Source of the DNA: a virus
Reading direction: 5' to 3' (one strand)
DNA: 64,000 nt
Virus record (IMG/VR): IMGVR_UViG_3300049845_000291
Span: 88,209 to 152,208 of that record
The translations under genes and the position numbers were made by a program. Below, one piece after another: positions 16,932 to 39,424 of this stretch. Each line of letters opens with the position of its first letter. The first letter of the stretch is position 1. The notes beneath the pieces are model-generated. The model was not told where the DNA came from and made no database searches. It was given only the letters and a program-made list of their open reading frames with translations.

Positions 16932-18557
16932 TCACGTGGTGTACTGTGTGTCTGAGAACACCTCGTTCGGCGTCAAGCCCTGCAACAGGAGCTGACCAAT
17001 GGACAACCCGTGGTAGTGCGCCGCCACTGACTTCACTGGATCGTTCTTGATGTACTGCGCCAAGCCGATCCAGATCACCGCCAGCCAGAGGTAATGCACC
17101 TCGGTGAAGCGCTCCATGAGCAAAGCACAGCCGCCCAAATCCGGCTTGGGGATCTTGAACTTCATCCCCCAGCTCGCACCGTGAACGCCATTGTGGTCCA
17201 GATGGAACTCACGCGAGTAGTTGAACAGGTCGTACCCGCTGAGCGCGTACGCCAGCTTTGCGATGTCGTACTCTGGTACGCCGTACGTCTTGGTCTGACC
17301 AAAGTACCCGCGTGGATCGATCAGCGTGATCTCCAGCGTGTCGGGATCGATCATGCTGTTCGACATCTGCAGGTCACCATGGATCATGCTCATGGTGTTG
17401 ACGCCTTGGTAGTGCTTGGCGAGCTTCTCATACAGCCCGTTAATGATCTCCAGCGGAGACATGCGTAGGTACAGTCCATTGACGTTCTGAACCGGGCCGA
17501 AGGCATCGATGACGCCAGCAATCTCACGGTACCGATTCAGGAGCTTCTCATGCGCCTCGATCTTGACATCACGCTGCACGATCTCGGTGGTGAACTCTTC
17601 CTTGATGCTGTGCAGCCTATCTGCTTGGTCAAAAAGGCGGCGCAGCACGAGGCGTCTGTTCTCAGCATCAAGGGTCCCCCAGTGCTGCCAGACTGGGACA
17701 CCTTTGACCTTGCTCATCACGAACGAGTCGCGGTCCATCGACACCCAGACCTTTGGCCGGCGGACCAATGTCCGCCGACGGTCGAGTTCCTCGTACCACG
17801 CGATCTCTTTCTTGATGAGCTGCTCGCCTTGGGTGTTCAACGCGCGCTTGAGCACCAGGTCTCCATGGATCTCAACCGAGTTGAACGAACGAGCGGCGTC
17901 GGCCGTTGAGCGAACGCGCTCAAGCTTTGGCTTGTCACCCCAGTCAATGATCGACGGCATGGGGAGCTGGAACACACCGTCCTTGGAGTACTGTGTAAGC
18001 AGCTCGACAAAGTCTTGGCCCTTGGTGTACGGCTTCGGGTGGTACTCAGCCACCGCGTACACACCGAAAAGCCCGCCACGACCGTCCTCTCGCAGCACTG
18101 GGACCTTGTGCTTGACACCGGGTCGATCAGCAAGATCGTATCGGTTTGGGTGATCGTAGTTCGTGAACGCGACGGCCTCGTGCCCAACAAGATCCTCTGG
18201 GCGGAAGTGCTCACCAGGCAGCACATCACACCAGGTGAAGAGCACTGGACTGCCTTCAAGATGCTGGCATGAGCTGAAGATCGCGTGCGCCGAGCCATGC
18301 GCGCCATCGACTGTCACAACATGAAAGGGCAGCTCTGGTTGCGACGCCCCAAAGTACATGTTGTAGTACTCGCGGACCAGCGTCCGGTAGCTGGAGTGCA
18401 CGATCACCGTGATTGAACTGGCGTACTGCGTCCAGTACTCGATCTGCTTGACAAAGCCAGTTTCCTTCCCGATGTTCACGAAGAACTTTGGGATGTGGTT
18501 CGTGAGGGGAGCAAGGCGGCTTCCAAGCCCGCCGGCGACGATGACGACGTTCATCAT
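16932..18557 (-). CDS. Sugar-phosphate nucleotidyltransferase fused to an APH/choline-kinase-like phosphotransferase
   Basis: N-terminal VVIVAGGLGSRLxPLT..IPK, TWCD, DWGD; C-terminal IHGDLxxSNxM..LIDPRG..YDIAKL. Confidence 0.88.
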   Translation of the reverse strand: MMNVVIVAGGLGSRLAPLTNHIPKFFVNIGKETGFVKQIEYWTQYASSITVIVHSSYRTLVREYYNMYFGASQPELPFHVVTVDGAHGSAHAIFSSCQHLEGSPVLFTWCDVLPGEHFRPEDLVGHEAVAFTNYDHPNRYDLADRPGVKHKVPVLREDGRGGLFGVYAVAEYHPKPYTKGQDFVELLTQYSKDGVFQLPMPSIIDWGDKPKLERVRSTADAARSFNSVEIHGDLVLKRALNTQGEQLIKKEIAWYEELDRRRTLVRRPKVWVSMDRDSFVMSKVKGVPVWQHWGTLDAENRRLVLRRLFDQADRLHSIKEEFTTEIVQRDVKIEAHEKLLNRYREIAGVIDAFGPVQNVNGLYLRMSPLEIINGLYEKLAKHYQGVNTMSMIHGDLQMSNSMIDPDTLEITLIDPRGYFGQTKTYGVPEYDIAKLAYALSGYDLFNYSREFHLDHNGVHGASWGMKFKIPKPDLGGCALLMERFTEVHYLWLAVIWIGLAQYIKNDPVKSVAAHYHGLSIGQLLLQGLTPNEVFSDTQYTT

Positions 18558-19177
18558 GCCACCCCACTTTCGGCCTTGAGCATCGCCCCAAGGGCACCGT
18601 CAGGGTGCAGCTTGAGGAAGTCCATGCGCTGGAAGTTCAGCCCATGCGAAACTTGGACCGCAATGCAGTCCAAGATGCACAGCAACGCGGTGGTGCTGGT
18701 AGTGGGAGCCAGCCCGTGCTCATCGCCCTCGACGACCGCTCCGATGCACAGCTCGCGGTGCACATGCGGATTTCGAGGCTTTGTTGGCTTGCAGTGAATC
18801 AGGATCTGCTTGACGTTCGGTCGAATGACCGTCACGTGCTGGATCGTCTCTAGCATCTCTCGAGTTGTGCCAGAACGCGAGATGTGGATAATCAGATCCT
18901 CATGCCCGATATGACCGTAATCTCCGTGTCCGGTATGGGCGGTGTTTAGGTACAGAGACGGGATACCTAGGCTCGCCATGGTTTCGCTGATTTTGGCAGC
19001 GATGTTGGCGTTCTTGCCAACACCCGTGATGATCACACGAGCTCGATATTCTTTACGGGCCGTCTCGAGGACGTCTTGAACAATTGCTTCGTATTCTGCT
19101 GAAGCAACGACAGGCTTCAGCGCCAAGAGCGCTGAAGCCTGTCGTTCAATGTTTGTAAGAGCTAGACTGTTACCCAT
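18554..19177 (-). CDS. SIS-domain arabinose-5-phosphate isomerase (KpsF/GutQ/KdsD-like, no CBS domains)
   Basis: VIITGVGK..IAAK, HGDYG, ISRSGTTRE, LAPTTSTTA, D.IAV, F...HPDGALG. Confidence 0.88.
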   Translation of the reverse strand: MGNSLALTNIERQASALLALKPVVASAEYEAIVQDVLETARKEYRARVIITGVGKNANIAAKISETMASLGIPSLYLNTAHTGHGDYGHIGHEDLIIHISRSGTTREMLETIQHVTVIRPNVKQILIHCKPTKPRNPHVHRELCIGAVVEGDEHGLAPTTSTTALLCILDCIAVQVSHGLNFQRMDFLKLHPDGALGAMLKAESGVA

Positions 19178-19179
19178 GT

Positions 19180-19200
19180 TGCCTCCTAATCTAGGAGGCA
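19180..19200 (-). promoter_or_regulatory. Hairpin sequestering the Shine-Dalgarno of the isomerase gene
   Basis: Minus strand reads TGCCTCCTA-gat-TAGGAGGCA-acATG. Confidence 0.7.
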
Positions 19201-19211
19201 ATTGTAACCGA
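19201..19211 (-). promoter_or_regulatory. Promoter core TCGGTTACAAT
   Basis: -10-like TACAAT; TTGATA 16 nt upstream; identical 11-mer at 39451-39461. Confidence 0.6.
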
Positions 19212-19265
19212 GACTAGCTCTCTATCAACTCAATTCTCGGATCAAGAAGTGCGAGGACTGGCGCT

Positions 19266-20009
19266 TCATTTGCGCTCGAACCTCGACAAGATGTCCTTCC
19301 TGAACTTTTCCTCGGTGGAGCTCATCCACGACGCAGGCGCCACCCCGTCAGGTTCCAGGTACTCCATGATCGACATGTTGTGCGATCGGTTCAGGTACCA
19401 ACCGGCGGCCAGGTGCTTCGCCTCCTCGATCGCGTCGCCGCCCAACAGGATCGCGAACATCATGATCTCGCGGTTGAAGTGCGAGAGCTGCTCGTGCAGG
19501 TGGTCGCTGAGCTGATGCCAGGCCTCGACGTTGTCGACGCTCGCCAGCACCATGACCGTGTACAGGGTGACCAATCTGGACTGGATGACGGCGGCATTGC
19601 GTTTGGCCTGGCGGAACGCGCCCTCAACTGTGTTGGTCTCCGTTTTGTACGGTTGCTTGGTGCAACCGGCGCCCTTCAGGCGGTCCAGGGCGGCCTTCGG
19701 CATGTCGAAGTACGGGAGCGCGGTGCTCTTCGAGCCGTGAATCAACAGCTCGTCGAGCCACTCGTCGATGAACTGCATGTACGGGTCAGTTTCGTCCTTC
19801 ATGAACTTGGCGGGCCAATCGACCGAATTCATGATGGCATGACCTGAGACTGCGGCCAGCGAGTGCCGAGCCTTGAGCGCGAACTCCGGCAAGTTCCGTC
19901 GACCGACAAGATGCACACCGTTCAGGACGAACTTGAGCGCCTCGGACAGCAGGACGCAGCGGCCGATCAGCACCTGCCGATCGACCTGAGAGTTCAGGTA
20001 CTCGTTCAT
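19266..20009 (-). CDS. Hypothetical protein (247 aa)
   Basis: Long ORF, coupled start. Confidence 0.65.
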   Translation of the reverse strand: MNEYLNSQVDRQVLIGRCVLLSEALKFVLNGVHLVGRRNLPEFALKARHSLAAVSGHAIMNSVDWPAKFMKDETDPYMQFIDEWLDELLIHGSKSTALPYFDMPKAALDRLKGAGCTKQPYKTETNTVEGAFRQAKRNAAVIQSRLVTLYTVMVLASVDNVEAWHQLSDHLHEQLSHFNREIMMFAILLGGDAIEEAKHLAAGWYLNRSHNMSIMEYLEPDGVAPASWMSSTEEKFRKDILSRFERK

Positions 20010-20464
20010 GCGGCGACCTTGAAGAACAGCGGTTGTCGCGGGTCCATGTACTCGGTGTCGTACTTCTCGTCACCAGGGAAGTTGCCCTCCTTGTCAGGCA
20101 TCACGATCTGCACAACCGGTACCGTGGTGCCGTAGTACTGATCAGCCTGCACGAAGTACTCCGTGCGCATGAGATCCTCGTTCTCGTTCGTGCGCTTGAA
20201 CAGCACGGGGAGATTCGCCCAGCGCTCGTCCGGCAGATCGAACTGCAACGGCCAACCGTCACGGATCTTGGAGGCAACCTCGTTGATGATCACGCACGCC
20301 AGGTCGGGGCGCAGGCCGACGATCATGAGCTCGAAGCCGAAGGCCTTGTCGCTGAACAGCCCGATCGTGTACGCGAACGGGTGCTTGCCATCGGCAACCC
20401 CGATCACCGTGTGCCCGTAGGAGCTGATGTCTTCGAGAATCTTGGCCAAGAGTCGGTCGTGCAT
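20006..20464 (-). CDS. DUF4262-like protein
   Basis: GHTVIGV...PFAYTIGL...ELMIVGL...QIVMPDKEGNFP...QP pattern. Confidence 0.75.
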   Translation of the reverse strand: MHDRLLAKILEDISSYGHTVIGVADGKHPFAYTIGLFSDKAFGFELMIVGLRPDLACVIINEVASKIRDGWPLQFDLPDERWANLPVLFKRTNENEDLMRTEYFVQADQYYGTTVPVVQIVMPDKEGNFPGDEKYDTEYMDPRQPLFFKVAA

Positions 20465-20466
20465 GA

Positions 20467-20817
20467 TCAGTTCTCCGTCAAAAAGTCGACCAAAAAGTGC
20501 GCGTCATCAGCCGTCAGCATCACCATGTTGCCGCGCGCGGCCTTGGCTAAGCTGATCAAGGTGATGGCGCGCTCGGAACGAAACGCTGACGCCAGCTCAA
20601 TGTGCTTCAGGTCAGAGTTCCCGTTGCTCTTCATCCAGGAGTAGGCCTGCTCCCAGGTCTTGAAGCGGTTGCCGAACAAGGTGATTCGAGTCCCGACCAT
20701 GCTCTCGCACAGCTGTCTGACCTCAACCTCAGCGCTGGCTCGCTCCTCGGCGAGATAACGCTCGCAGGCCGCCCGCAGTCGCTCGGGCTCGATCACGGTG
20801 AAGCTCTTGATTCCCAT
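20467..20817 (-). CDS. Hypothetical protein
   Basis: Probable start MGIKSF overlapping the upstream stop. Confidence 0.6.
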   Translation of the reverse strand: MGIKSFTVIEPERLRAACERYLAEERASAEVEVRQLCESMVGTRITLFGNRFKTWEQAYSWMKSNGNSDLKHIELASAFRSERAITLISLAKAARGNMVMLTADDAHFLVDFLTEN

Positions 20818-21736: not shown

Positions 21737-21918
21737 CACTTGTCCTTGAAGAACTTCGTGCCAAGCAGCGCGTTCACGGCAATCGATGCCACGATGATCA
21801 CGAAGGCCACCAGTGCGCCAAGGAGCATTCCATGTACAGGTCGACCGAAGACCAAGCCGGCCACACCGGTCAGCACCATCCAAAGGACAACGAAGGCGGT
21901 GATGAACGTGCGGTTCAC
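21736..21918 (-). CDS. Small membrane protein
   Basis: 60 aa, two transmembrane-like segments. Confidence 0.6.
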   Translation of the reverse strand: MNRTFITAFVVLWMVLTGVAGLVFGRPVHGMLLGALVAFVIIVASIAVNALLGTKFFKDK

Positions 21919-21919
21919 A

Positions 21920-23634: not shown

Positions 23635-23674
23635 GAGTGGGCGAAGAATACAGGCATTAGGTGACAAATAGCGT

Positions 23675-25961: not shown

Positions 25962-25968
25962 GACCTGC

Positions 25969-26017: not shown

Positions 26018-26543
26018 ACTTGACGGTGTTGTGCAGCGAGGCGGCGCGACGATCGAAGTAGTACGCGTCTTTGCCGGTTTTGATTGGTCGCCCCGGTGCG
26101 TTCAAGAGCTTCTTGAACGAGATCGCGCCCTTGTACTTAACCTCCTGATGCGAGGGGCTCGTGTACTCGAAGGAATGGATCAAGACGTCGCCACCGTCCT
26201 TCACGATGTTGCTCCAGCACACATGCTCGTCCCAGGCGATGGTGTGGGTGCCGCTCAAGATGAGCTTTCCTCCCTGGCAGAACCAAGTCGCGGCCTTGTC
26301 GTCTTCAAGGATGCCATTCACGATACGGTCGTAGTTCGCCTTGCCAAACGACGGCTCAAAGGGCACCCCACGCCTGATGAGCTCCATGCTGTGCTCGTAC
26401 TCAACGGCGAGACCCAATCGCCAGCGACCTTTGCGCTCCTCGTTCAAGATCCTGTGCGCTTGAGCCCAGAGCTCAGTTTCTTCGTTCGCGAGCTCTACCG
26501 CATCGTTGGTGATCGGCAGGATTTCGTTGTACTGCAGCCTCAC
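26013..26543 (-). CDS. Hypothetical protein
   Basis: GTGA-coupled to the methyltransferase gene. Confidence 0.6.
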   Translation of the reverse strand: MRLQYNEILPITNDAVELANEETELWAQAHRILNEERKGRWRLGLAVEYEHSMELIRRGVPFEPSFGKANYDRIVNGILEDDKAATWFCQGGKLILSGTHTIAWDEHVCWSNIVKDGGDVLIHSFEYTSPSHQEVKYKGAISFKKLLNAPGRPIKTGKDAYYFDRRAASLHNTVKL

Positions 26544-27358
26544 GCTTGAGCTCGACGGCGCCAGATCTTTGGCATCCGATTGAAGCCGTCAAAGACCTTG
26601 TCGAAATGCATCTCGATCGCCTTAGTGGTGATACGGCGGGCCTGTCGAAAGCCAACCAATCCATGCCCCTCGATATCGTACGTGTCGAAGTGCCCGATGT
26701 TTTCCGAGCTGCCATTAAAGCCGGAGCTCTCGGCCAAGTAACCACCAGGCTTCACGAGCCTGAGCAGCTCTCTCACGTGTGCCAGAGGATCGGTGTAGTG
26801 CTCAAGCACCTCGAATGACAACACCAGGTCGTATTGCTTCTCTGGAAAGGTGCTGTGCAGCTTAACGGGTGGCAGTCCGAAAAACTGCAGGGCGTGCTGC
26901 ATGTACCTCGCCTGCGCCTCGTTATCGTTGAAAGCCTCGATTTTCTCGAAGCCATTGAGCTTCATGTGCGCCGTCGTAAGACCGCAACCGTTATACATGT
27001 CTAGCACGTCCATCTCGGCCGGCTTTGCCCCCTCGTACCAGATCCCTTGAGTCACCCTGGTGTCAATAACACGGCCACCAATGACGTTTCCAGGCTTGTG
27101 GCGCCCGAAGTACTTGATTACCCCACCTGTGCAGGCCTTCGACTTCTCGAAGCAATGGATGCCCTCGTAGTTGTACTGCGGATCTCGATACACCGAGTAG
27201 TCCGGCCGACCTGACTTCAGGGACGCGGTCCATTGGTCATGCAGGCGACTCTTGATCGTGAACATGTCGTCCTCAAGGTCAGCGTAAGTCTCGTACGACG
27301 TTCCTTCGAACGCGTTTGTGAGCTCGACGATTTCCTTCGGCGAGATGTTCGTTGTCAT
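26540..27358 (-). CDS. Class I SAM-dependent methyltransferase
   Basis: VLDMYNGCG motif I; YDLVLSFEVLEH..DP......L.RLVKPGGYL. Confidence 0.85.
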   Translation of the reverse strand: MTTNISPKEIVELTNAFEGTSYETYADLEDDMFTIKSRLHDQWTASLKSGRPDYSVYRDPQYNYEGIHCFEKSKACTGGVIKYFGRHKPGNVIGGRVIDTRVTQGIWYEGAKPAEMDVLDMYNGCGLTTAHMKLNGFEKIEAFNDNEAQARYMQHALQFFGLPPVKLHSTFPEKQYDLVLSFEVLEHYTDPLAHVRELLRLVKPGGYLAESSGFNGSSENIGHFDTYDIEGHGLVGFRQARRITTKAIEMHFDKVFDGFNRMPKIWRRRAQA

Positions 27359-27360
27359 AG

Positions 27361-27846
27361 TCAGCGTCTTTGGAAGGTTGGTGCAGCCAGCTTCATCTTT
27401 GGCAGCTTAGCTTGCAGCTTCAGGATGTGGCGCTCCATCTCGAGAATCAGATCTTCCTTGGTCTGCACGCCGTAGAACCGCATCAAGCGCTCGAGGTCAC
27501 GGTCCTCGAGTGTCGGCCCGATGAGCTCTTCGTTCTGGATCGTGTTCGTTTCTGGGGTGCCTTCGATCGGATCGATGTACCAGATCTTCGATACCCCTGG
27601 CCCATCGGGGACCGCCAAGCACTCCGTCTCGTACGTGCCGTACATGGAGCGGTGATAGAACGTGTGCGTGCTCTGCACCAGGTGCAGCTGGTCCAGATGC
27701 ACACGACGCTCAACCTCACCAGAGTCGTACTGATCGGGCGATCGAACGATAGCAAAGCCGCCCTCCAACGATCGACCTCGATGAGCAGCTCGTCCATCAT
27801 CCCAGGATCTCGTTGAACTCAAAGAGCTCGAAGGTCTCATGTCCAC
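27361..27846 (-). CDS. Hypothetical protein (start uncertain, possibly MYGTYE)
   Basis: C-terminal half looks coding; a competing ORF lies at 27483-27800. Confidence 0.4.
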   Translation of the reverse strand: MDMRPSSSLSSTRSWDDGRAAHRGRSLEGGFAIVRSPDQYDSGEVERRVHLDQLHLVQSTHTFYHRSMYGTYETECLAVPDGPGVSKIWYIDPIEGTPETNTIQNEELIGPTLEDRDLERLMRFYGVQTKEDLILEMERHILKLQAKLPKMKLAAPTFQRR

Positions 27847-28075
27847 GACAGCGCTGGTTCACGAACCCAGCGATTTCTCTTCTTGCGTGGTTTAACCGCC
27901 CGCCATCGAGGAACCGATTGACATTCTTACGTAGCTCCACCAGCTCGTGGCCGATGCCCCATCCTTCGGTGACCTTCTCGATGTTCTCGACGATCTTGAG
28001 CAGCTCTTCCCGCCCACTGGCTCGGTACAGCCTCACGTTCCCATACGACATCCAGACCAGGATCAATTGAACCAC
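27797..28075 (-). CDS. Hypothetical protein
   Basis: Overlap-coupled ORF. Confidence 0.5.
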   Translation of the reverse strand: MVQLILVWMSYGNVRLYRASGREELLKIVENIEKVTEGWGIGHELVELRKNVNRFLDGGRLNHARREIAGFVNQRCRGHETFELFEFNEILG

Positions 28076-28629
28076 CTCGGACGCTTAGAGTCACCAGTCA
28101 TGCGGTTCCACTGACGGAACCACCCCTCAACCTGAACCATCAGAACACGATCGTTCTGGTTATGAGCTTGTGATTCGAGCTCGGTCATCATCGTCCAGAA
28201 CGAGCTGATCACGTCCTTATGCATGGACGGTTTGATCTTGTTCAGCTCGATCGCACCACCCTGCCGGCCTTGAACCAAGAGGAACTGCGATGCGTTCAGC
28301 CACTTGGTGACGCGAATCGCGCGTTCGGCGATCGGCAGGATCTGTGATCCCCGCAGCTTCTTGCCCTGATGCCATTGATCATTGTCCATGCGGAGCGCGA
28401 TCCAGACGTCAAACGACTCATCTTCCTGATTGAAGGTCTGGAACGATTTGAAGTACTTTGCGGGGTGCCAATCTCTGGTCCAGTCATTGATCCTGACGAT
28501 GTCGCTCGTGAGACGGCGGTCAATTGTGCCAAGAAGACGCAGCATGATCACCCCGTACTGCTGGTGATGGAACTGCTTCAGCGGCGCCGCGTCACCAACC
28601 AACCGCTCCTCGGCCAGCCCGGTGTTCAC
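28063..28629 (-). CDS. Hypothetical protein
   Basis: GTGA-coupled ORF. Confidence 0.55.
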   Translation of the reverse strand: MNTGLAEERLVGDAAPLKQFHHQQYGVIMLRLLGTIDRRLTSDIVRINDWTRDWHPAKYFKSFQTFNQEDESFDVWIALRMDNDQWHQGKKLRGSQILPIAERAIRVTKWLNASQFLLVQGRQGGAIELNKIKPSMHKDVISSFWTMMTELESQAHNQNDRVLMVQVEGWFRQWNRMTGDSKRPRWFN

Positions 28630-29416: not shown

Positions 29417-29457
29417 GTGAGCATTGTACCCCGATCTAGGGGTGACCTTGTAACGTG

Positions 29458-30129
29458 TTACGAGAGCACGATGTACTTTGCGGTCTTGTCGCCTCGAGCC
29501 AGCAGCGCGGCGAAGCGGTGGTACCCGTCAATCAGACGCGGCGAGCCGTCAGGGCGGCGGTGAACAACGCCGACGGGAATTCCCGCCGCGAACTCGTACT
29601 GCGTGCCGCGTTTGGCGCGCATGTACTCATCATTCCCCACGAGCCCATCGAGTGCCAGTTCTTCGATCTCGACGTTCTTGCACTCGTTGATCACGTCGAG
29701 CACGAAGGAGTACTCAGCCTCCAGGACCTTGCGGATCTTTTGGAGGTCGCTCTCCAGGTTCAAGATCTCGTTGATTGCTGGCAACAGGTCGTGTGCACCC
29801 TCAAAGGTGATGTCGTCGATCTCTTCGCCGTAGTACCCACCCGTCACGGAGATGGAGAACTTTTCTGGCTCGTACGCCTTGTGCAGACGGAGCAGACGGT
29901 CGATGCAGTACATCTCAATCGTGCTGGCCGTGTCATGCACGAAACGGAGGCGCTTTCCTCCAGTCTGCTTTTGGACCTCGATCAGCCCCTCAAGATTTAC
30001 TGAGGTGGTGCGCAGGTTCTCGTACCGACCACAGCGACAGATCGAGTCACAACCAGCTTCTTCGCAGTTCGTCACGTACTCATAGTCGTACTCGACCGCG
30101 TACCGGGCCTGAAGGGACGCCAACCTCAT
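29458..30129 (-). CDS. Protein with C-terminal ParB/Srx-like domain and N-terminal Cys cluster
   Basis: PVGVV...LIDGYHRFAA; CEEAGCDSICRC. Confidence 0.65.
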   Translation of the reverse strand: MRLASLQARYAVEYDYEYVTNCEEAGCDSICRCGRYENLRTTSVNLEGLIEVQKQTGGKRLRFVHDTASTIEMYCIDRLLRLHKAYEPEKFSISVTGGYYGEEIDDITFEGAHDLLPAINEILNLESDLQKIRKVLEAEYSFVLDVINECKNVEIEELALDGLVGNDEYMRAKRGTQYEFAAGIPVGVVHRRPDGSPRLIDGYHRFAALLARGDKTAKYIVLS

Positions 30130-30605
30130 CGAATTCCCCTTGGATGCAGCATGATGGCCTTGATTCGCTCGATGCCAAGATCAAGATCATCAAAGAGCTC
30201 CAGATGTTGGAACATCGAGCACAGCACCTGGACATTCCCGCGCCGCCAAAAGCCAGGTGGGCAGACCACCACCGTCCGTACCCCAACGCCAGCCAGAAGC
30301 CCAAGCTCCAGCAGTGAGATCGGTGATTGGGTGCCAGGCTGCAAGTACATCAGCACTGCCGTGCTGGTGCGAATGTAGTCCAGCTCCCACCGCACCTGGG
30401 TCTCAAACTCCTTGTTTGTGATGTCTTGGACCCATGACGCGTTCCACACCGGCCGGCGAGGATTCAAGACCGTGCAGTCAAGATCTGCTAGCTCGCTGAT
30501 GACGCGTGCTTGCCAGTCTACAGCTAGGCCCTGTTCAATCGAACCGGCCAAGAACACAGCCGGCGGCGACACCGCGCCGCGCTCTGGAGCGACTAGGACC
30601 TTCAT
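30126..30605 (-). CDS. Nucleoside 2-deoxyribosyltransferase-like / nucleotide N-glycosidase
   Basis: VFLAGSI...DWQ, NPRR, QVRWEL, SPISLLELG, FWRRGNV. Confidence 0.85.
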   Translation of the reverse strand: MKVLVAPERGAVSPPAVFLAGSIEQGLAVDWQARVISELADLDCTVLNPRRPVWNASWVQDITNKEFETQVRWELDYIRTSTAVLMYLQPGTQSPISLLELGLLAGVGVRTVVVCPPGFWRRGNVQVLCSMFQHLELFDDLDLGIERIKAIMLHPRGIR

Positions 30606-30883: not shown

Positions 30884-31104
30884 GATGACCTCACTTGACT
30901 TTGTTCAACGATTTGAAGGAGCGCCTTCAGCCGCTCCGCGAACTGACCAATCTCTTCAGGATTGATCGACCAGCGTTGTGTTTGCAGCACGATGTACGGA
31001 CCGCCTCCTGCATCGGCGATCTCAACGTGCAGCTCATGAATAGGTTCATTGCTGCAGCTGTCAGGATCTTGCGTCAGCAGGAACTTGGCACCATCTATCC
31101 TCAT
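30880..31104 (-). CDS. Hypothetical protein
   Basis: Coupled ORF with DAGGGPYIVL motif. Confidence 0.55.
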   Translation of the reverse strand: MRIDGAKFLLTQDPDSCSNEPIHELHVEIADAGGGPYIVLQTQRWSINPEEIGQFAERLKALLQIVEQSQVRSS

Positions 31105-31778
31105 CGATAGATCTCCGAACGGTTGTTGCGGATCACAACAACCTGCTGGAAATCAGTGAGCGCCTTGTCCAGGTCTTCACCTGAGAGGACCCCGTCCCAG
31201 ATCATGCCATTGCCCCAGCCCCGTTCCTCATCGAGGACTGATTTGAGACGCTTGTTGTTGGTGTCGACTATCTTGCGAATCCTGGCCGTGAGCGACCGCA
31301 TGGAGCACTCCCCGAGCTCCCCGTAGATCGCGCGAATGATCTCTTGAGAGGTGCGATCGGTCAGCCGCTGAAGCCTGACCGGTTCAGGTGTGCTCACGTA
31401 CAACGTCACCATCTGCCAGCCCTTGGAGCCACAGTACTTGCGGTAGATCTCAAGGCCATTGGGCTCCAAGATCACGATTGGGGGAGGAAGACCGGGTGCC
31501 AGCTTCGACTCCATCTCCTTGTGTGTCACCCCGTACCGCACACCGTTGAAGGTCACCAGCTCGGCAAAGAGCCCCTCAGCCTCCATTTCACGAGAGCGAT
31601 CGGTCGTGATGAAGAAGTAATCAACGCCTTCACGCTCATCGACACGAGGCATGCGGTCCGTTGTGCTGACGATTCGTTCACACCCAAGCTTCGTGACCAG
31701 CGCCTCAAGGAGGTAGCTCTTTCCAGAGCAAGTTGGTGCGGTGATCGTGATTAGGGTCGGGTACTTGAATTTGATCAT
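31101..31778 (-). CDS. Guanylate-kinase-like (d)NMP kinase
   Basis: APTCSGKS P-loop; VSTTDRMPRVDEREGVDYFF; E...FNGVRYG. Confidence 0.88.
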   Translation of the reverse strand: MIKFKYPTLITITAPTCSGKSYLLEALVTKLGCERIVSTTDRMPRVDEREGVDYFFITTDRSREMEAEGLFAELVTFNGVRYGVTHKEMESKLAPGLPPPIVILEPNGLEIYRKYCGSKGWQMVTLYVSTPEPVRLQRLTDRTSQEIIRAIYGELGECSMRSLTARIRKIVDTNNKRLKSVLDEERGWGNGMIWDGVLSGEDLDKALTDFQQVVVIRNNRSEIYR

Positions 31779-31807
31779 AGACAGCCTCGTGAGTACATGA
31801 TGAATTG

Positions 31808-32290
31808 TTACATTTGCTTGGGCTGCAGGAACTTGATCAGGGGATAAGGATCACGGGCGTGAAACCGTTTCCAGGCTTGGGGGTGATGGACTTGGAGAAC
31901 GTCGATACCAGCACCTTTGGCCCACTTGGAGGCGTTTGCCCCCAAGCAGATCCGCCGCCCCCATGGCAGGTCCAAGTACCTTGAATCGGTGTCATTGCCG
32001 TTGAAGTCAGCTGCGTTCAACCAGCCAAGCTGATCTTCAGGCACGCCGGCTCGCTCAAGTTGAATGTTCAGCCACAGTGAGCAGTTTTCAAGGGCGCCAA
32101 ACGGAGTGTAATGAAAGTTCGGATCGTTCGGAGCAGATGGTGCTGGGCGATCACCAATCAGCAGCAGCTGTCCTTTCGGAACCCACTGACCTGCTTGCAT
32201 CGCGAGAAATCGCCTCTTTCGGAAGGCGACCCGCATGATAAGGGCATGCTGCAGGTCTGGATCGAGGCGCTTGAAGGCGTTCAGTGCCAT
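31808..32290 (-). CDS. Minimal uracil-DNA-glycosylase-superfamily protein
   Basis: LLIGDRP, PF, WLNA, ICLGANA and HHPQ match the UDG-like motif order. Confidence 0.65.
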   Translation of the reverse strand: MALNAFKRLDPDLQHALIMRVAFRKRRFLAMQAGQWVPKGQLLLIGDRPAPSAPNDPNFHYTPFGALENCSLWLNIQLERAGVPEDQLGWLNAADFNGNDTDSRYLDLPWGRRICLGANASKWAKGAGIDVLQVHHPQAWKRFHARDPYPLIKFLQPKQM

Positions 32291-32550
32291 CAGTCGTACT
32301 CGTGCAGCTCTTCATCTTCGTCGTCGCCACCGCGCATCGCGCTCTTGATCTCGGCATCAGACATCGGCTGGAAGCCAACGACGGTGCCGCAATCTAGGCA
32401 GATCTCCATGTCAATGTAGTCACCGCCACAGACACCAGTGATGTCAGGCGGATAGTCGTCGCGCTCGAGCCGCAGGTGCGGCACAGACGTGAAGCACAGG
32501 TCGTTGACCTTGCCGTTGATGCTCAGAACTCGGGTGTGGTTGCAGGCCAT
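32290..32550 (-). CDS. Small Cys-containing hypothetical protein
   Basis: C.H...GGDY....ICLDCG. Confidence 0.6.
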   Translation of the reverse strand: MACNHTRVLSINGKVNDLCFTSVPHLRLERDDYPPDITGVCGGDYIDMEICLDCGTVVGFQPMSDAEIKSAMRGGDDEDEELHEYD

Positions 32551-33668
32551 TTGAAGGTGCTCAGGGTGTTGACGAAGTTCTCGCAGAACTGAACTGGATC
32601 CCAGCCAAGGGCCAGCCGCTGTTCCTCGATGATGGTTTGACGGGTCTCCGGCGAGCTCTTGATCAACCGTAGCAGGTCAACCAGCATCGCCTGGTCCCTG
32701 ACGTACAGATACTCATGCGCCGCGGTGCCTTTCGGGTAGATCCGTCGGCTCTTGTCGATGTTGGCGTCGATGAACACGATGTTCCCAGCGGCGATGCACT
32801 CGGCAACGCGCTGTGGAATCAGATCGAGGCTCTCGTACGATGGGTCACCAGTCACCAGATGCGCCAGCGCGCCTTGCATCTTTGGCAGTACGTCGCCGTA
32901 CTTCACCATACCAGTGAACTGCGGGTACCGCTTGACAGGAAGCTTGCCGATCTTCGGATGCTTCTCGAAGTCGGTCTCGTCGATCTTACCGAAGATCTCA
33001 ACGCTGATGTCGTCTGGCAGACCACAGTACCACTTGTACAGGTTTGGGATGCGCCGGCCGCCGCGTGCGGTTCCGCCGTACATCAGGTCAACGGTGGGGT
33101 GCTCAGCAGGCGGCAGCCACGGGTTGAGCAGCGGGAATCGATCCATTGGGTAGTGCACGATCTGCCCAAGGGGGACGCCTTTCTTTGGCCAGTCCGCCTT
33201 CACGGCGAGCAGCGCGTACGGTTGCGAGACCAAGTGGATCGGCTTCTGGATCAGGATCTCGTCTTTGGTGTACTTCGTGCCCCACGGCTTCTTCTCGACG
33301 TTCTCCCAGATCTGAACGAACGGCAGCTCCGGATCACACATCAAGTACACCACCGGGCCAGTGAACGTGTTGATCAGCCGGTAGTTCGCGATCTGCTCGG
33401 CGTCCTCAGCGCCACCGAAGAAGTTCACGTTCCCGTTGATGACGCACAACACATCCAGCTGCTGCAGCACCGATGGATCTGTCTCCATGATCTGGTGCCA
33501 GTGCAGGCTCTCGTGCAGAGTGTCCTTCTTCAGGATTTTGGTGAACACGTGCACCTCAGCGCCACCATTTCGCAGGGCCTTGCAGATGCTGATGGCCTCA
33601 CCCGAGGTCACTGAGTTGTCAAGGTCCCACAGAATGCGGGCACCCAGCTTCAAAACACCGATCTTCAT
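32523..33668 (-). CDS. DNA glycosyltransferase homologous to T4 beta-glucosyltransferase (BGT)
   Basis: Colinear with T4 BGT as I recall it: INGNVNFFGG~VNSSINFFGG, YLMCDPELP~YLFTDIRLP, WENVEKKPW~WPNVKNRPW, YGGTARGGRR~YGGSFRSGQR, QRVAE~LRVWE. Confidence 0.88.
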   Translation of the reverse strand: MKIGVLKLGARILWDLDNSVTSGEAISICKALRNGGAEVHVFTKILKKDTLHESLHWHQIMETDPSVLQQLDVLCVINGNVNFFGGAEDAEQIANYRLINTFTGPVVYLMCDPELPFVQIWENVEKKPWGTKYTKDEILIQKPIHLVSQPYALLAVKADWPKKGVPLGQIVHYPMDRFPLLNPWLPPAEHPTVDLMYGGTARGGRRIPNLYKWYCGLPDDISVEIFGKIDETDFEKHPKIGKLPVKRYPQFTGMVKYGDVLPKMQGALAHLVTGDPSYESLDLIPQRVAECIAAGNIVFIDANIDKSRRIYPKGTAAHEYLYVRDQAMLVDLLRLIKSSPETRQTIIEEQRLALGWDPVQFCENFVNTLSTFKWPATTPEF

Positions 33669-34560: not shown

Positions 34561-34561
34561 G

Positions 34562-35722
34562 TCAGAAGCCGATTTTCCTGGTACGACGCTGCACGCTGAC
34601 GCGCTGACCGAAGATCTCAGCCAACGTGAACTCCGAGCCATCACGCAGGTCGATGCCAACGTCCGACGCCACGTTCAAGGCCTCAGCGCGAGTCATTGGC
34701 CGGAACTCGACCACATCGAAGCAACGACCCGGACGCATGAGCGCCTCGTCGATGTCACGGATCGACGGCAGGTTCGTGCTGAACACGAGCTTCTTGCCTT
34801 CAGCGCTGATCAGACCATCAGACACGTTCAGGAACCGGTGCATCATCGTGTTCCCATCAGTGCGCGCCTTGAGGAACGTGTCTGCGTCCTCCATGATCAT
34901 GAACCTGGTATCGCTCTCGATGAAGTTCGCGAAGATCCCGTCGCTGTTCATGACGCGCTCATCGTACGTGACCTTGGCATCGCCACCTGAGCGGTGGATC
35001 AGGTTCTTGATGAAGGTCGTCTTGCCGGTGCCAGGCGGGCCGATCAAGATCAGCACACTGGCCGAGCTGTTCAGGTACTCGTCGATGTACTCGGGCAGCG
35101 GCTTCGGCAGCCACGGGTACGCCGAGTTGATCGCCGGGCGGAAGTTCAGCGGCACGTTGATGCTGTTTCCGCGCTCGTTGTACACCCACTCGATCAGGTT
35201 CTCGGCACGCTTGTACATGCCGTCCATGCGCTCAACGAAGGCCTTGACCTCCTTTGGGTCGCCGTTGAGCTCCAGATCAAGCTTGCCACGCTGCAGGGCA
35301 GCCTCAACCATGCCCCAAGGGAACAGCATGACCGCACGGTTTGGCGAGAAGAAGTTGTACCGCTCCGTCAGGTCGGTGACCCAGTCACGAAGCTGGATCG
35401 TGACATCGATCATCCATGTACCCTCTTGCGCCAAGGTGTTACGGTTGTTCTCGAGCGAGCTCCGCATGAACGAGGAAGCCAGCCACTCATCCGGACCGTA
35501 CGCGCCAAAGATCACGCCGGTGTCGATGTTGTTTTCATTCATGAGATGTGCATCATCCATGCAGGTGTCAAGATGGTCTCTATTGATCAGAGGACGTTCA
35601 CGTTTGATTCGACGACGGCGCTTATCAACGCGTCTGACAGCCTGTAAACCTGTGGTTTTAGTGCTTCGCCTGATTCGACCGAGATCAACTGGGTCGAGGT
35701 CGATGTCATCATCGTCATCCAT
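34562..35722 (-). CDS. AAA+ ATPase (probably leaderless)
   Basis: GPPGTGKT, IMEDAD, FLNVSDG, STN, DEALMRPGRCF; TACAAT-6nt-ATG. Confidence 0.9.
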   Translation of the reverse strand: MDDDDDIDLDPVDLGRIRRSTKTTGLQAVRRVDKRRRRIKRERPLINRDHLDTCMDDAHLMNENNIDTGVIFGAYGPDEWLASSFMRSSLENNRNTLAQEGTWMIDVTIQLRDWVTDLTERYNFFSPNRAVMLFPWGMVEAALQRGKLDLELNGDPKEVKAFVERMDGMYKRAENLIEWVYNERGNSINVPLNFRPAINSAYPWLPKPLPEYIDEYLNSSASVLILIGPPGTGKTTFIKNLIHRSGGDAKVTYDERVMNSDGIFANFIESDTRFMIMEDADTFLKARTDGNTMMHRFLNVSDGLISAEGKKLVFSTNLPSIRDIDEALMRPGRCFDVVEFRPMTRAEALNVASDVGIDLRDGSEFTLAEIFGQRVSVQRRTRKIGF

Positions 35723-35763
35723 TTGAGCATTGTACGCGATCGACTTTGTTCTGGAACTTGAAT

Positions 35764-37503
35764 TTAGGTTCCAAGCATGGACACAAACCGGGTATCGAAC
35801 TCGTCACTCCACTCGTTATTCTTTGCTGTCCACAAGCGTTGGATGTTTGTGTCCAGGAAGTACGTGGTGGCCCAGTCCTCAGGCGACCGAACCGAGCGAC
35901 CAGCGCCCTGGACCAGCTTCATGGTGCACAGCAGGTTGTAGATGTCTGGCCATTTGTCGAGGATCTCTTTCATGCGCGCTTCACCCAGCGATCCAAATGG
36001 GGCCTTGACGATGATCTGGTACCTGCTCAGATCACCAGCAAGGTCAAGGCCCTCAAAGCCACTTGGCGTCAGCAGGATCGCCGGGCCCTTGTGGTTCTTG
36101 AAGGTCTGCAGTACGTCGGCCAGCTTCTGGCCACGCTGGTGCTCAACGAGCCGGGTGTTGAGCCCCATGCCTTGGAGCATCTGCGCGATGCCCTCGGTCA
36201 GCGCAAACGACGGCGCCAGCACGATGCCGCGCTCGCCCTTGTCCGTGTGGTGCTTTGCGATCTCATACACCGTGGCTTGAAGCTTCTTGACGACTGATGG
36301 CTCCTTGAGTGTGCTGTAGCTCAGGTTCTGCGGCTTGTAGAACAGGACCTTCTTGTTCTCACGTGGAAAGGTCGGTGGCAGGCGCACGTGCTTAGCATTA
36401 TCGAGGGTCAGCGTGCGACGCGCGTACTGCTCGCTGAGCGTGGCGCTCATCAGCAGGTTGTACCGAGCGTTGATCAGGTTCTCGAACATGTCGCCAACGA
36501 AGATCGGCTTGACGCTGACCTCGTGCTCGTGCTGCCCGTATTTTGGCTCCTTCGGCTTGTACTCGAAGGCGTGCGGGTACCCGTACTCGATCAGGTCGTT
36601 GATCTTGCACCCGAGGCCATGGTACTTCTTGGACAGCCGAGACAGCTCTAGGTACTTCTTCTGGTTGTGGATCGCCCTTTCGGCTTGGTTTCGCGCGGCC
36701 TCATGAACTTGGCCGTACGCATCAGCCAAGGCCATCAGGTGCTGCATGTAATTGTCACGTGTGATGTCACCCGAGATCAGATCGCCGGCCACGTTCCGCA
36801 GGATCTTGAAGACCTCGGTGCTGCCAAGGGTCAACGTCTGGTTGATCTCCTCCGCCATCTTCTTGAGCCGAGAGTCGCTGAAGTAGATCGCGTTGTGCTC
36901 AGTGAACAGGTCGTTCAGCATGTGTGCTTCATCGAACACGCACACCGTGCGAGCCGGAAGCATCTGCGTGAACATCCGGTCGATGAAGTAATAGGAATAG
37001 TTCGTGATCAGGTGCCGAGCCTTGTCACGCATCCGCTTCTGGAGCGCGAAATCGCAGCCGTCACAGAAGATCTTGATCTGCTCATCCATACCCTCCTTCT
37101 GGAACAGACGGAGGGCACAGACCTCAGCGGTCTGAACCTCAGATGGCGTGCTCAGGGCGGCGCACTCGAAGTTCCCAGCGCCCTTGAACATCCTGAACCG
37201 GGTATCAAGCGGATCACGTCCTTCTTGGAAGGTCCGATGGTACTGCTCACTGAGCACGTTCGTCGGTGTCAACAAGAAGCTGGCGCCGACGTGGGCATCT
37301 GGGTGGTGCAGTCGATGCAGTGCCTCGGCAACCACCGCGCCGATGATGGACTTGCCAGTGCCAGTTGGCGCTGATAGGATCACGGTCTTGTGTCCCTCAT
37401 CGAGGAACGACGTCAGGATGGTGTTGATGTCCTGCACCTGTCTTCCGCGCGGCTTGTACCCGACCGCGTCATAGGCCTCAATGATTTGCTTTTCGTATTT
37501 CAT
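35764..37503 (-). CDS. DinG/XPD-family SF2 helicase
   Basis: SAPTGTGKS, KG..NFEC, Cys cluster, DEAH, MSATL, EGLDL, QGAGRSVR. Confidence 0.9.
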   Translation of the reverse strand: MKYEKQIIEAYDAVGYKPRGRQVQDINTILTSFLDEGHKTVILSAPTGTGKSIIGAVVAEALHRLHHPDAHVGASFLLTPTNVLSEQYHRTFQEGRDPLDTRFRMFKGAGNFECAALSTPSEVQTAEVCALRLFQKEGMDEQIKIFCDGCDFALQKRMRDKARHLITNYSYYFIDRMFTQMLPARTVCVFDEAHMLNDLFTEHNAIYFSDSRLKKMAEEINQTLTLGSTEVFKILRNVAGDLISGDITRDNYMQHLMALADAYGQVHEAARNQAERAIHNQKKYLELSRLSKKYHGLGCKINDLIEYGYPHAFEYKPKEPKYGQHEHEVSVKPIFVGDMFENLINARYNLLMSATLSEQYARRTLTLDNAKHVRLPPTFPRENKKVLFYKPQNLSYSTLKEPSVVKKLQATVYEIAKHHTDKGERGIVLAPSFALTEGIAQMLQGMGLNTRLVEHQRGQKLADVLQTFKNHKGPAILLTPSGFEGLDLAGDLSRYQIIVKAPFGSLGEARMKEILDKWPDIYNLLCTMKLVQGAGRSVRSPEDWATTYFLDTNIQRLWTAKNNEWSDEFDTRFVSMLGT

Positions 37504-37742
37504 CAGATGGCCCGAATTTCGGCGATGAAGGTGTCAGCCCCAGTGTCGCCACTAAAGAGCCATTCTACCTCCTTCATCACCAGTGCCATTTCACGCGCGC
37601 GGCTCACGATCACCTCGAGTTCCTCGAGCACCTCAGGGCCGAAGTCCTGAACCCACTCCTTGTCGCCACGTAGGTCGCGTTCCAGCTCGTCTGCGAACTG
37701 GTGCACGCGCATGTACGCGTAATCAAAGTGCCCACCGCTCAT
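37503..37742 (-). CDS. Conserved small phage protein
   Basis: MSGGHFDY...EWLFSGDTG. Confidence 0.6.
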   Translation of the reverse strand: MSGGHFDYAYMRVHQFADELERDLRGDKEWVQDFGPEVLEELEVIVSRAREMALVMKEVEWLFSGDTGADTFIAEIRAI

Positions 37743-37756
37743 GAAAGCCCCTTGTG

Positions 37757-37763
37757 CTAAATA
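37757..37763 (+). promoter_or_regulatory. Late promoter CTAAATA for the homing endonuclease
   Basis: Directly upstream of the GIY-YIG ORF. Confidence 0.55.
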
Positions 37764-37776
37764 GGCCATAATCTAT

Positions 37777-38460
37777 ATGACCGTCACTATGAACCACTAC
37801 ACCTATTGTATTGTTTTCCCAGCTATTCCACGACTTTATATCGGGGTTAGGTCTTACAATGGCCCGCCAACTCAGGACGACTACCGCTCTTCATCGAAGA
37901 AAGTGAAGGCTCTCATCAAGGAAGGTTTTCAATATACCATCTCCATAATCGCCACACACGCCACTCGTGCAGAAGCAGAGGCTGAAGAGATTGCTCTCCA
38001 TGATATTTTCGATGTTGCGCGTAATCCATATTTCCTGAATGGCGCCAAGGCCAGACATGGAGGCTTCACACGCGCTGGGGTTCCTTCTGATCAGAAAGGC
38101 CGAACTTATGAGGAACTCTTCGGCATCGAAGAGGCGGCGCGTAAGAGACTCAACTTACAGCAAAAGTTGAGGAACAGGGTCTTCTCGAAAAAGACTAAGG
38201 CCAAAATGGCTGCCTCACACGCAGATGTATCAGGCCCACTAAACCCTCGTGCTATTTCTGGAGCCTTGGAACTTTCTGGCAAGATCCTTTTGGAATATCA
38301 GACAAAAGCTGAACTTGTTCGGTGGTGCCTTGACAATGATGTTCCGCACCGCCCTATCCTAAGGCTTAGGACAGGCGATGCTTATCTGCCCAACATCACC
38401 CCGCGTAATGCGAAGTTCAAGCGTTGGTTTGGTCTTCGTGTTCTGGAACCCCAAAGATAA
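37777..38460 (+). mobile_element. Free-standing GIY-YIG (Seg-like) homing endonuclease
   Basis: YTY...LYIGVR...YRSSS...E...N pattern; NUMOD3-like SKKTKAKMAASH; opposite strand and visibly AT-richer than its flanks. Confidence 0.8.
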
Positions 38461-39424
38461 CGTGCATGGCTTCATCACGTTCACCAAAACACATTAGCAC
38501 GAGATTCTGCCAATAAGGTGTAAGCAATTCCCATGCGCCAACGTCCTCAAACGCGAAATCCTTGCTGGCACCGGCAGCCTGCCAAGCAGCTTCAATTCCA
38601 ACAAGCCCCGTGAGAATTTCATCTGAAAAAACGTCCATCTTGATCATCGGCATCTCAAGTGCGCGTTCGTCTTTGATGATGGCCTCAGCCATAGAAAAAT
38701 GGCGCGAGTAAATGTGCATCGAGCCAGCGTTGTGGTAGTACACGCCAAGCTCCAGATCAGGCCAGTGCCGACGAAGCTCGAGCATCATGGCCTCCTGCAG
38801 CATGGTGAACTGGAAGACATCGTTCGTGAACCCGAGGATGATGTCGTTCGATCGCATGTTCACGATCAGGTGCAGCCGGTTCTCACGAATCAACCACTGC
38901 AGCGTGAAGGTGCAGGGCACGTCCTTGTTGCCCACGTGCCGATCACTCGGCACGTGGATGCTCATCACGGCTTGACGGGTGTCCTTGTCGCGGGCCAGGG
39001 CCAGGATGGTCTCCTGCCACTGGTTGATGGGCTCAGGCTTGGACAGCGTGCTGGCTTTGGTGCTGAATGCAGGCAGCTTACTGTGTCCGAACAGCCGGGT
39101 GCCGTAGTTCGAGTTCACGGTACCGGCGGGATAGAGCTCATTGTCACCTAGGTTCCGAATGCCGTCCCAGAACTTGGCGTACGGCAGAATGCCGGCTGGG
39201 TCGTTTGAGCCGCTGATGTACCAGATGAACTCGCCAAGCAAGTACTTCAGGCTGGTCTTGCGGTCGGCATAGTTGATGATCCGATTTCGTGGATCACCGA
39301 GCGTGATGTTGTAGTTCAGGAGCTCCTTCGTCGTGGTGCCCCGTGGGTGCGATTCCATACCGTGATGCATCAGATGCATCAGGCAGGTGCGAAAGTCATG
39401 ATTGAGTTGGTTGTTTTGCTGCAT
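38417..39424 (-). CDS. dCMP hydroxymethylase-like thymidylate-synthase paralog (T4 gp42-like)
   Basis: VNSNYG, DTRQA, DVPCT..LQWLIR, VNMRSND...GFTND (Asp), NAGSMHIYSRHF, compared with T4 gp42 MRSND..FGFRND and GSLHVYSRHF. Confidence 0.85.
   Translation of the reverse strand: MQQNNQLNHDFRTCLMHLMHHGMESHPRGTTTKELLNYNITLGDPRNRIINYADRKTSLKYLLGEFIWYISGSNDPAGILPYAKFWDGIRNLGDNELYPAGTVNSNYGTRLFGHSKLPAFSTKASTLSKPEPINQWQETILALARDKDTRQAVMSIHVPSDRHVGNKDVPCTFTLQWLIRENRLHLIVNMRSNDIILGFTNDVFQFTMLQEAMMLELRRHWPDLELGVYYHNAGSMHIYSRHFSMAEAIIKDERALEMPMIKMDVFSDEILTGLVGIEAAWQAAGASKDFAFEDVGAWELLTPYWQNLVLMCFGERDEAMHVIFGVPEHEDQTNA

Follow-up and report, generated by a model that had tools for sequence, protein, structure and literature searches.

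Arabinose-nucleotide genes joined to a T4-type cytosine hydroxymethylation and glycosyltransferase module in a clade of uncultured jumbo phages

Introduction

The final 64 kb of a 152,208-bp virus contig in IMG/VR (record IMGVR_UViG_3300049845_000291, here G000), analysed as a whole and hereafter called the window, carries a T4-type module for hydroxymethylating and glycosylating cytosine together with an operon for arabinose-nucleotide supply of the RB69 type. The combination of a hydroxymethylase, kinases and a homolog of the T4 beta-glucosyltransferase (BGT) with a sugar isomerase and a sugar kinase/nucleotidyltransferase is real, extends across a whole clade and is undescribed as far as sequence collections and the literature show (PMC13326640, PMC13390438), which agrees with an initial annotation of the window that had proposed such a union of two strategies and knew it from no described phage. 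The gene content tentatively suggests that the DNA of these phages may contain 5-hydroxymethylcytosine (5hmC) bearing arabinose from phage-made UDP-arabinose, with the BGT homolog as the most likely transferase.

All characterised arabinosylation of phage DNA takes place on 5-hydroxycytosine and is carried out by Aat-type transferases (PMC13326640, PMC13390438). Arabinosyl-5hmC was once claimed for RB69, and this is now regarded as a misassignment and has been replaced by arabinosyl-5-hydroxycytosine (PMC13390438); as that claim has been withdrawn, a genuine arabinosyl-5hmC would be new.

The window is part of an uncultured jumbo phage related to the Ralstonia phage RsoM2USA. The contig (GC about 57%, completeness 43% by CheckV) shows long gene-by-gene synteny with the 310-343-kb metagenomic phage genomes G001, G005, G035 and G037, and completeness was 94% for G001, 98% for G035 and 100%, with terminal repeats, for G037. 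Gene comparison identified RsoM2USA as more distant kin.

Gene content of the window

All five gene types named in the initial annotation were found on the minus strand, at or within a few bases of where it had placed them (Table 1). They belong to a minus-strand block of replication and nucleotide-metabolism genes, which also encodes topoisomerase II subunits, UvrD-like and XPD-like helicases and an Fpg/Nei-family DNA glycosylase.

Table 1. Features of the window discussed in the text (positions in the window; NMP, nucleoside monophosphate)
Feature	Position	Strand	Supporting match
ThyA paralog, predicted 5-hydroxymethyl-dCMP synthase	38417-39424	-	Pfam PF00303 Thymidylat_synt, E 3e-24
Canonical thymidylate synthase (Leu143, Asp169, Asn177)	6094-7026	-	PF00303, E 1e-90
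T4 beta-glucosyltransferase (BGT, GT63) homolog	32523-33668	-	PF09198, E 4.6e-26; phrog_7922, E 3.9e-49
Thymidylate-kinase-fold P-loop kinase, 199 aa	33668-34267	-	P-loop EGLDRLGKDT and predicted fold
Guanylate-kinase-like NMP kinase	31101-31778	-	PF00625 Guanylate_kin, E 1.2e-12; TIGR03263, E 1.5e-17
Arabinose-5-phosphate isomerase, SIS domain only, KpsF/GutQ type	18554-19177	-	TIGR00393, E 2.8e-29; phrog_5670, E 2e-72
AfhE-like bifunctional sugar kinase/sugar-1-phosphate nucleotidyltransferase	16932-18557	-	PF00483 and PF01636; phrog_4098, E 6.9e-107, full length
Promoter-like 13-mer TCGGTTACAATTG, upstream of the ThyA paralog	39449-39461	-	
Second TCGGTTACAATTG copy, upstream of the isomerase/AfhE operon	19199-19211	-	
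Fpg/Nei-family DNA glycosylase	15226-16245	-	Fapy_DNA_glyco and H2TH domains
Nuc_deoxyri_tr2 gene (nucleoside 2-deoxyribosyltransferase / dNMP N-glycosidase-like)	30126-30605	-	
Conserved 160-aa protein	31808-32290	-	no Pfam match

The hydroxymethylase and the predicted base

The Asp-type ThyA paralog that had been recognised beside a normal thymidylate synthase is distinguished from it by the substitution N177D (E. coli ThyA numbering). Its best matches in the PDB are the CMP hydroxymethylase MilA (5b6d, E 2.5e-24) and the T4 dCMP hydroxymethylase (E 2e-15), and it combines Cys146, L143D and N177D with a retained Asp169, in the context 'KDVPCT ... MRSNDIILGFTND'. Cys146 is the catalytic residue, N177D marks specificity for cytosine, and L143D/E marks hydration instead of reduction. 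In an alignment with MilA and the T4 enzyme, the positions of MilA Ala176 and Lys133 (TS-167 and TS-126) are occupied in the paralog by Ser and Arg (within 'MRSND' and 'KDTRQ'); Ala176 and Lys133 account for the CMP preference of MilA, and Ser and Arg are found in enzymes that take deoxynucleotides (PMC5175136).

RB69 and DLP3 arabinosylate 5-hydroxycytosine, and the ThyA homolog that makes the precursor is diagnosed by an Asn where the E. coli enzyme has Asp169, an Asn present in all tested 5-hydroxy-dCMP (5hodCMP) synthases (Lee et al. 2026, PMC13326640). The proven 5hodCMP synthase DLP3 gp80 and Entb_45 gp104 carry D169N together with L143E. Around Asp169 the window paralog aligns as MRSND...D, like T4 gp42, against MRSQN...D in DLP3 gp80, in Entb_45 gp104 and in 22 of 22 Straboviridae-type loci fetched via AfhE. 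The hydroxymethylase signature was identical in all 11 BGT-linked ThyA homologs checked, a set drawn from T4-like and jumbo phages and one Enterococcus phage. Because Asp169 is kept alongside L143D, Cys146, N177D and the Ser/Arg determinants of deoxyribose use, the predicted product is 5-hydroxymethyl-dCMP (5hm-dCMP), and on this signature the modified base in the phage DNA is very probably 5hmC. A 5-hydroxycytosine product was considered and rejected, since the paralog keeps Asp169 and lacks the diagnostic D169N; of the two acceptors initially put forward, 5-hydroxymethyl- and 5-hydroxycytosine, the first is thus supported by the signature and the second is not.

The jumbo family has two hydroxymethylase lineages at one and the same locus. 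The MilA-like form ('KDVPCT') occurs in the window phage, G001, G003, G005 and RsoM2USA, and a T4 gp42-like form ('SDFMCTNT') in the contigs G012 (175260-175841) and G015 (27738-28301), which therefore points to gene replacement with the chemistry retained.

The BGT homolog and the nucleotide kinases

To our knowledge, all known BGT-family enzymes transfer glucose to 5hmC. The homolog in the window aligns over its full length with T4 BGT (residues 1-350 with 1-327 of 1bgt, E 1.8e-34) and keeps the equivalents of E22, D100 (the catalytic base), R191/R195 and R269/E272 (UDP-binding), all invariant in the clade alignment, so that it is predicted to be a catalytically intact DNA glycosyltransferase. 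A hydroxymethylase-type ThyA homolog accompanies the BGT homolog in every case checked. Its donor is in question because genes for UDP-arabinose are linked to it. The kinase/BGT region found no blastn match among 50,697 phage records.

The initial annotation had also described a thymidylate kinase (TMK)-like kinase coupled to the BGT homolog. This description is upheld by a 1-nt overlap between the kinase stop and the BGT start, by the P-loop and TMK-like predicted fold of the kinase and by the full-length homology of the BGT, and the two genes are kept side by side in the whole phage family. The 199-aa kinase has no match in Pfam, NCBIfam or PHROG, and sequence searches against the PDB, as well as BLASTP against RsoM2USA ORF3 and DLP3 gp78, returned nothing past the P-loop. 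Its AlphaFold model (pLDDT 76.7) has thymidylate kinases as top Foldseek matches in the PDB (probability 1.0, TM about 0.55), and its structural neighbours, including 4s35 and 3kb2, are shared with those reported for DLP3 gp78 (PMC13326640). The P-loop reads GLDRLGK(D/S)(T/S) across relatives, with the canonical GKST/GKSS in relatives, and the product is a putative TMK-like NMP kinase. RsoM2USA ORF3 is a heat-shock-like protein, and the true homolog lies at RsoM2USA 6046-6567. A second NMP kinase, likewise claimed initially, was confirmed by its Guanylate_kin match; this gene is kept in the AfhE-positive relatives and also in G012 and G015.

Compared with T4, the window shares the hydroxymethylase-signature ThyA homolog, the full-length BGT with its catalytic and UDP-binding residues, NMP kinases and the placement of hydroxymethylase and BGT in one gene neighbourhood. 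It differs in that its BGT is only 28% identical to the T4 enzyme, its hydroxymethylase is MilA-like rather than gp42-like, and its kinases are of the TMK fold and guanylate-kinase-like rather than gp1-like; moreover, the phage is predicted to make its own non-glucose sugar nucleotide, and the chassis is a jumbo phage of about 340 kb.

The arabinose-nucleotide operon

The proposed pairing of an arabinose-5-phosphate isomerase with an adjoining nucleotidyltransferase/kinase fusion was confirmed by family matches for both genes and by their ATGA overlap. The isomerase starts at ATG 19177, preceded by an AGGAGG ribosome-binding site, and is 49.5% identical to DLP3 gp83. The AfhE-like enzyme, with the nucleotidyltransferase domain N-terminal and the APH-fold kinase domain C-terminal, is 34% identical over its full length to DLP3 gp82, and its motifs GxGxRL, IHGD..SN and IDPRGYFG are invariant. 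Stand-alone kinase-like paralogs with APH/protein-kinase-type D.H..N and IDP motifs were also seen in G001 (110406-111086 and 266107-267363) and in G003 (53598-54293); one G003 paralog lies directly downstream of AfhE.

The arabinosyl-5-hydroxycytosine pathway of RB69, DLP3 and HY126 comprises a 5hodCMP synthase, an arabinose-5-phosphate isomerase, AfhE, the phosphatase AfhF and Aat transferases (PMC13326640). Set against that pathway, the window is alike in having the isomerase and the bifunctional AfhE-type kinase/pyrophosphorylase as an overlapping pair. It is unlike in that its ThyA homolog keeps Asp169 and is not of the D169N hydroxylase type, in that it has a BGT homolog instead of an Aat homolog and no AfhF-type HAD (haloacid-dehalogenase-type) gene next to AfhE, and in that its genes are spread across 22 kb rather than gathered in one tight cluster. 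The Rhizobium phage RL38J1 makes hexosylated 5-hydroxycytosine and encodes a UDP-galactopyranose mutase (PMC13326640). Like the window phage, it lies outside the T4 group and encodes its own means of shaping the sugar nucleotide from which cytosine is glycosylated; it differs in its 5-hydroxycytosine acceptor, its hexoses and its GT-B transferases from outside the BGT family.

Two further minus-strand genes were excluded from the pathway because they have no homolog in the four relatives compared (G001, G002, G003 and G005). One is a class I S-adenosylmethionine methyltransferase gene (26540-27358), on which the initially suggested further methylation of the base, not supported here, depends; the other is a 247-aa open reading frame (ORF) directly upstream of the sugar operon (19266-20009), for which a single weak match was seen, in G037 (24% identity, E 3.5e-7).

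Distribution and phylogeny of the two modules

A BGT-homolog profile search retrieved 33 IMG/VR contigs, and a separate AfhE-based scan added G035 and G037. Among the 33 contigs, AfhE occurs only alongside the closest BGTs (56-65% identity), in G001, G002, G003 and G005. BGT tracks AfhE perfectly in the AfhE-positive jumbo contigs: it lies 8-14 kb from AfhE in all seven that reach far enough, two of which are complete (G000, G001, G002, G003, G005, G035 and G037), the other AfhE-positive fragments ending short of that distance. The AfhE-associated BGTs form one clade (support 1.0) with a long stem, nested among BGTs from AfhE-negative phages, and the pattern suggests that the sugar operon was gained once, by phages that already had the 5hmC/BGT module. 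Of 21 clade-specific BGT substitutions, 8 fall within 5 residues of catalytic or donor-binding landmarks (Glu22, Asp100, Arg191/195, 'GD' and Arg269/Glu272) against 3.5 expected (p = 0.015, post hoc). Clade-specific residues of the window homolog include A/S19, V20, M110, P116, P208, N209, T273 and C291.

The hydroxymethylase, the TMK-fold kinase and BGT are also kept in G012, G015 and RsoM2USA, with an XPD-like helicase gene between them in G012 and G015, and this module is common to the whole family of RsoM2USA-like jumbo phages. RsoM2USA, the uncultured LR756500, G012 and G015 thus resemble the window in the module (BGT 36-49% identical) and differ from it in having no isomerase/AfhE operon: neither gene was found in G012, G015 or RsoM2USA, and AfhE was found neither in LR756500 nor in G021 and G031, both of them complete or near-complete genomes. 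It is likewise missing from five phages in culture that carry BGT. Conversely, the same operon in Straboviridae is always accompanied by the D169N enzyme, the gp81 HAD phosphatase, Aat1 and a TMK-like kinase, and none of 22 Straboviridae-type AfhE loci has a BGT, as had been supposed for RB69-type phages. The two modules are not obligately coupled. On co-occurrence in relatives, proposed earlier as a check, AfhE and BGT are linked in the seven far-reaching contigs, and the modules are separable in both directions.

In the published genome of RsoM2USA (MG752970), ORF2, ORF6 and ORF10 are an unannotated BGT homolog, a TMK-fold kinase and a hydroxymethylase-signature ThyA paralog, ORF2 being listed as 'hypothetical'. 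The DNA of this cultured phage probably contains glycosylated 5hmC, a point absent from its paper.

Proposed pathway

In the proposed pathway, the ThyA paralog would convert dCMP to 5hm-dCMP, as its residue signature suggests, and the TMK-fold and guanylate-kinase-like enzymes would carry this product towards the triphosphate, to be incorporated during replication as in T4. The isomerase, by homology, would turn ribulose-5-phosphate into D-arabinose-5-phosphate, and the AfhE-like enzyme may phosphorylate C1 and, after loss of the 5-phosphate, yield UDP-D-arabinose. After replication, the BGT homolog would add the sugar to the hydroxymethyl group; arabinose would end in a glycan on 5hmC in DNA, the predicted product of the clade-specific BGT homolog being arabinosyl-5-hydroxymethylcytosine. 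As a reading of the sequences, the BGT homolog is modestly favoured as the arabinosyltransferase, short of being probable. It is conceivable, though doubtful, that a BGT-fold enzyme of family GT63 has switched its donor from host UDP-glucose to phage UDP-D-arabinose and that the clade carries true arabinosyl-5hmC.

Several points, including some that favour the alternatives considered below, weigh against this assignment. The full pathway is a prediction from the genes of an uncultured phage, and the transferase inventory covers the 152-kb fragment, itself 43% complete. An AfhF-type HAD phosphatase is missing from the donor route: tblastn and a motif scan of the 152-kb contig found no homolog of DLP3 gp81 and no protein with HAD motif I, tblastn with gp81 found nothing in G000, G001, G035 or G037, and the motif-I scan of all ORFs returned only the HAD_SAK_2 protein of G001. 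Two other AfhE lineages keep a HAD phosphatase, either adjacent or fused. A host enzyme or the HAD_SAK_2 protein of the relatives would have to fill this gap; a 120-aa ORF after AfhE in G001 was rejected for the role as a small protein without a HAD motif. In addition, a pocket for pyranose glucose would have to accept arabinofuranose if BGT is the arabinosyltransferase. At least six jumbo genomes that are complete or nearly so (RsoM2USA, LR756500, G012, G015, G021 and G031) have BGT, hydroxymethylase and kinase but no AfhE. Loss of the sugar operon independently of BGT had been named initially as a finding that would speak against the proposal, and it is matched in part by these genomes and, in the other direction, by AfhE without BGT in Straboviridae. 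Since the module lacks arabinose genes in T4 and in the AfhE-negative jumbo phages, its ancestral donor was presumably host UDP-glucose. Finally, most of the substitutions specific to the clade's BGTs are conservative, and the identities and divergence of BGT run parallel to those of neighbouring genes, so that the co-occurrence of AfhE and BGT may reflect shared ancestry after one acquisition.

Alternative transferases

A somewhat unlikely alternative is that BGT glucosylates 5hmC from host UDP-glucose and that a GT4-like or unrecognised enzyme attaches arabinose, either as a second sugar or only at some of the sites, so that the glycan contains both glucose and arabinose. T-even phages commonly use two transferases, and BGT is widespread without AfhE. 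A GT4-like protein (PF13692, GT4-conflict PF20706), the only other transferase found, is encoded in the AfhE-positive genomes G001, G005, G035 and G037. It is a GT-B enzyme, the fold class of the known Aat enzymes, and all known DNA arabinosyltransferases are GT-B/GT4-like (PMC13326640). Its neighbours are an HAD_SAK_2 gene in G001, G035 and G037, whose product could replace AfhF, and an Endonuclease_NS gene in G001 and G035. Homologs of the Aat enzymes themselves were absent, tblastn with DLP3 gp76, gp77 and gp79 finding no match in G000, G001, G035 or G037.

However, the GT4-like gene is present also in the AfhE-negative G012 and RsoM2USA (56053-57138 in the latter), and its sequences group as G001, G012 and RsoM2USA versus G005, G035 and G037, without regard to AfhE status, for which reason GT4 is rated below BGT as the arabinosyltransferase. 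In G035 the gene (44706-45793) is frameshifted, with the N-terminal ~95 aa in one frame and the remainder in another, and AfhE is intact; the frameshift may stem from misassembly, mark a pseudogene or belong to a phase-variable gene. The adjoining HAD protein is of the RNA-repair HAD_SAK_2 type. Furthermore, over 70 kb separate the GT4-like gene from the sugar operon in G001, G035 and G037, and the gene is not on the 152-kb fragment of the window phage, outside which the relatives' GT4 region falls. A profile of AfhE-linked genes (G001 genes present in G005 and absent from G012, G015 and RsoM2USA) was swamped by divergence and shadow ORFs and gave no extra transferase.

The promoter-like element and the target of the arabinose

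The window holds two exact copies of the 13-mer TCGGTTACAATTG (0.03 expected), and these stand only upstream of the sugar operon and of the hydroxymethylase gene. Its core GTTACAAT is present in five copies in the 152-kb contig, all intergenic and all in sense orientation, of which the other three stand before a DnaB-like helicase operon, before an unknown gene and before an operon encoding a DsbA-like protein and a family-B DNA polymerase; in G001 and G003, too, the core is placed ahead of the hydroxymethylase and isomerase genes. The sugar operon shares a promoter class with replication genes, and a DNA-directed role is therefore favoured; the phage-made arabinose probably goes to DNA. As a promoter-like class, the core (C/T)GTTACAAT(TG) was counted at 5 sites in G000, 25 in G001 and 10 in G003, before replication and nucleotide genes, often with GATCC/ATCCC about 30 nt upstream and in some copies with an upstream TTGTAAC inverted repeat of the core.

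Another possibility, judged unlikely, is that the isomerase/AfhE operon supplies arabinose for virion proteins or another glycan and that the hydroxymethylase and BGT form an ordinary glucosyl-5hmC system. AfhE and BGT are separable across phages, and no gene can be recognised as that of a dedicated arabinosyltransferase. In a third and distant lineage of AfhE (27% identity), represented by L184:4215-9620 (IMGVR_UViG_3300020160_002053) and four contigs like it, the neighbours are a HAD-SIS fusion (phosphatase and isomerase), GT17, GT25 and a methyltransferase, which look like ordinary non-DNA glycan genes, and virions of the jumbo phage XacN1 contain glycoproteins (PMC5852040). Opposed to this are the position of the operon among replication and nucleotide genes rather than structural genes, the promoter element that it shares with the hydroxymethylase, DnaB helicase and DNA polymerase operons and that also marks the operon in G001 and G003, and the Straboviridae homologs, the sole lineage studied experimentally, which make the donor for DNA arabinosylation (PMC13326640).

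The chemistry of RB69 itself, in which the ThyA paralog would make 5-hydroxy-dCMP and arabinose would be ether-linked directly to C5, is very improbable: the genes for arabinose supply have homologs in RB69 and DLP3, and L143D and N177D are shared in kind with the hydroxylases, but BGT-family enzymes are known only with 5hmC, the nearest solved relatives of the paralog are hydroxymethylases, Aat homologs are lacking in the four genomes searched, and Asp169 is kept where all tested 5hodCMP synthases have Asn (PMC13326640).

Neighbouring genes

The likely true start of the Fpg/Nei-family glycosylase is an internal Met that yields the canonical PEGPEV N-terminus, and the gene is kept in G001, G005 and G035, a short way downstream of the sugar operon. 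The Nuc_deoxyri_tr2 gene and the gene for the conserved 160-aa protein, placed between BGT and the remainder of the block, are kept throughout the jumbo family, AfhE-negative members included, and their products could serve in nucleotide-pool sanitising. A MazG-type NTP pyrophosphatase, a candidate dCTPase, is encoded in G001, G005, G012, G015, G035, G037 and RsoM2USA and was not found on the 152-kb fragment.

Adjoining the canonical ThyA gene, the segment 5076-8127 on the minus strand encodes a Tpt1/KptA RNA 2'-phosphotransferase (E 6e-45) and a circularly permuted YpsA SLOG protein, along with a weak, sub-threshold Macro-domain match (E 5.5e-4); the Macro, Tpt1 and SLOG genes look like an NAD/ADP-ribose-related trio. 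Very large ORFs are located on the plus strand at 39507-42797 (1096 aa) and 46889-56977 (3362 aa), and the C-terminus of the former is a Peptidase_S74 intramolecular chaperone domain, typical of tail fibres and spikes.

Implications

If arabinosyl-5hmC is indeed made by these phages, it would be a new cytosine hypermodification, distinct from the arabinosyl-5-hydroxycytosine of RB69 and DLP3. Such a modification would bear on predictions of whether the DNA is attacked by modification-dependent (type IV) restriction enzymes and by DNA glycosylases, and a BGT variant that accepts a pentose would be of interest to those who employ BGT for 5hmC labelling. RsoM2USA is flagged as a likely, unrecognised 5hmC-glycosylating jumbo phage. 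For phage biology more widely, the proposed pathway would mean that the modules for making the base, making the donor and transferring the sugar recombine even between phage groups that are very distant from each other.

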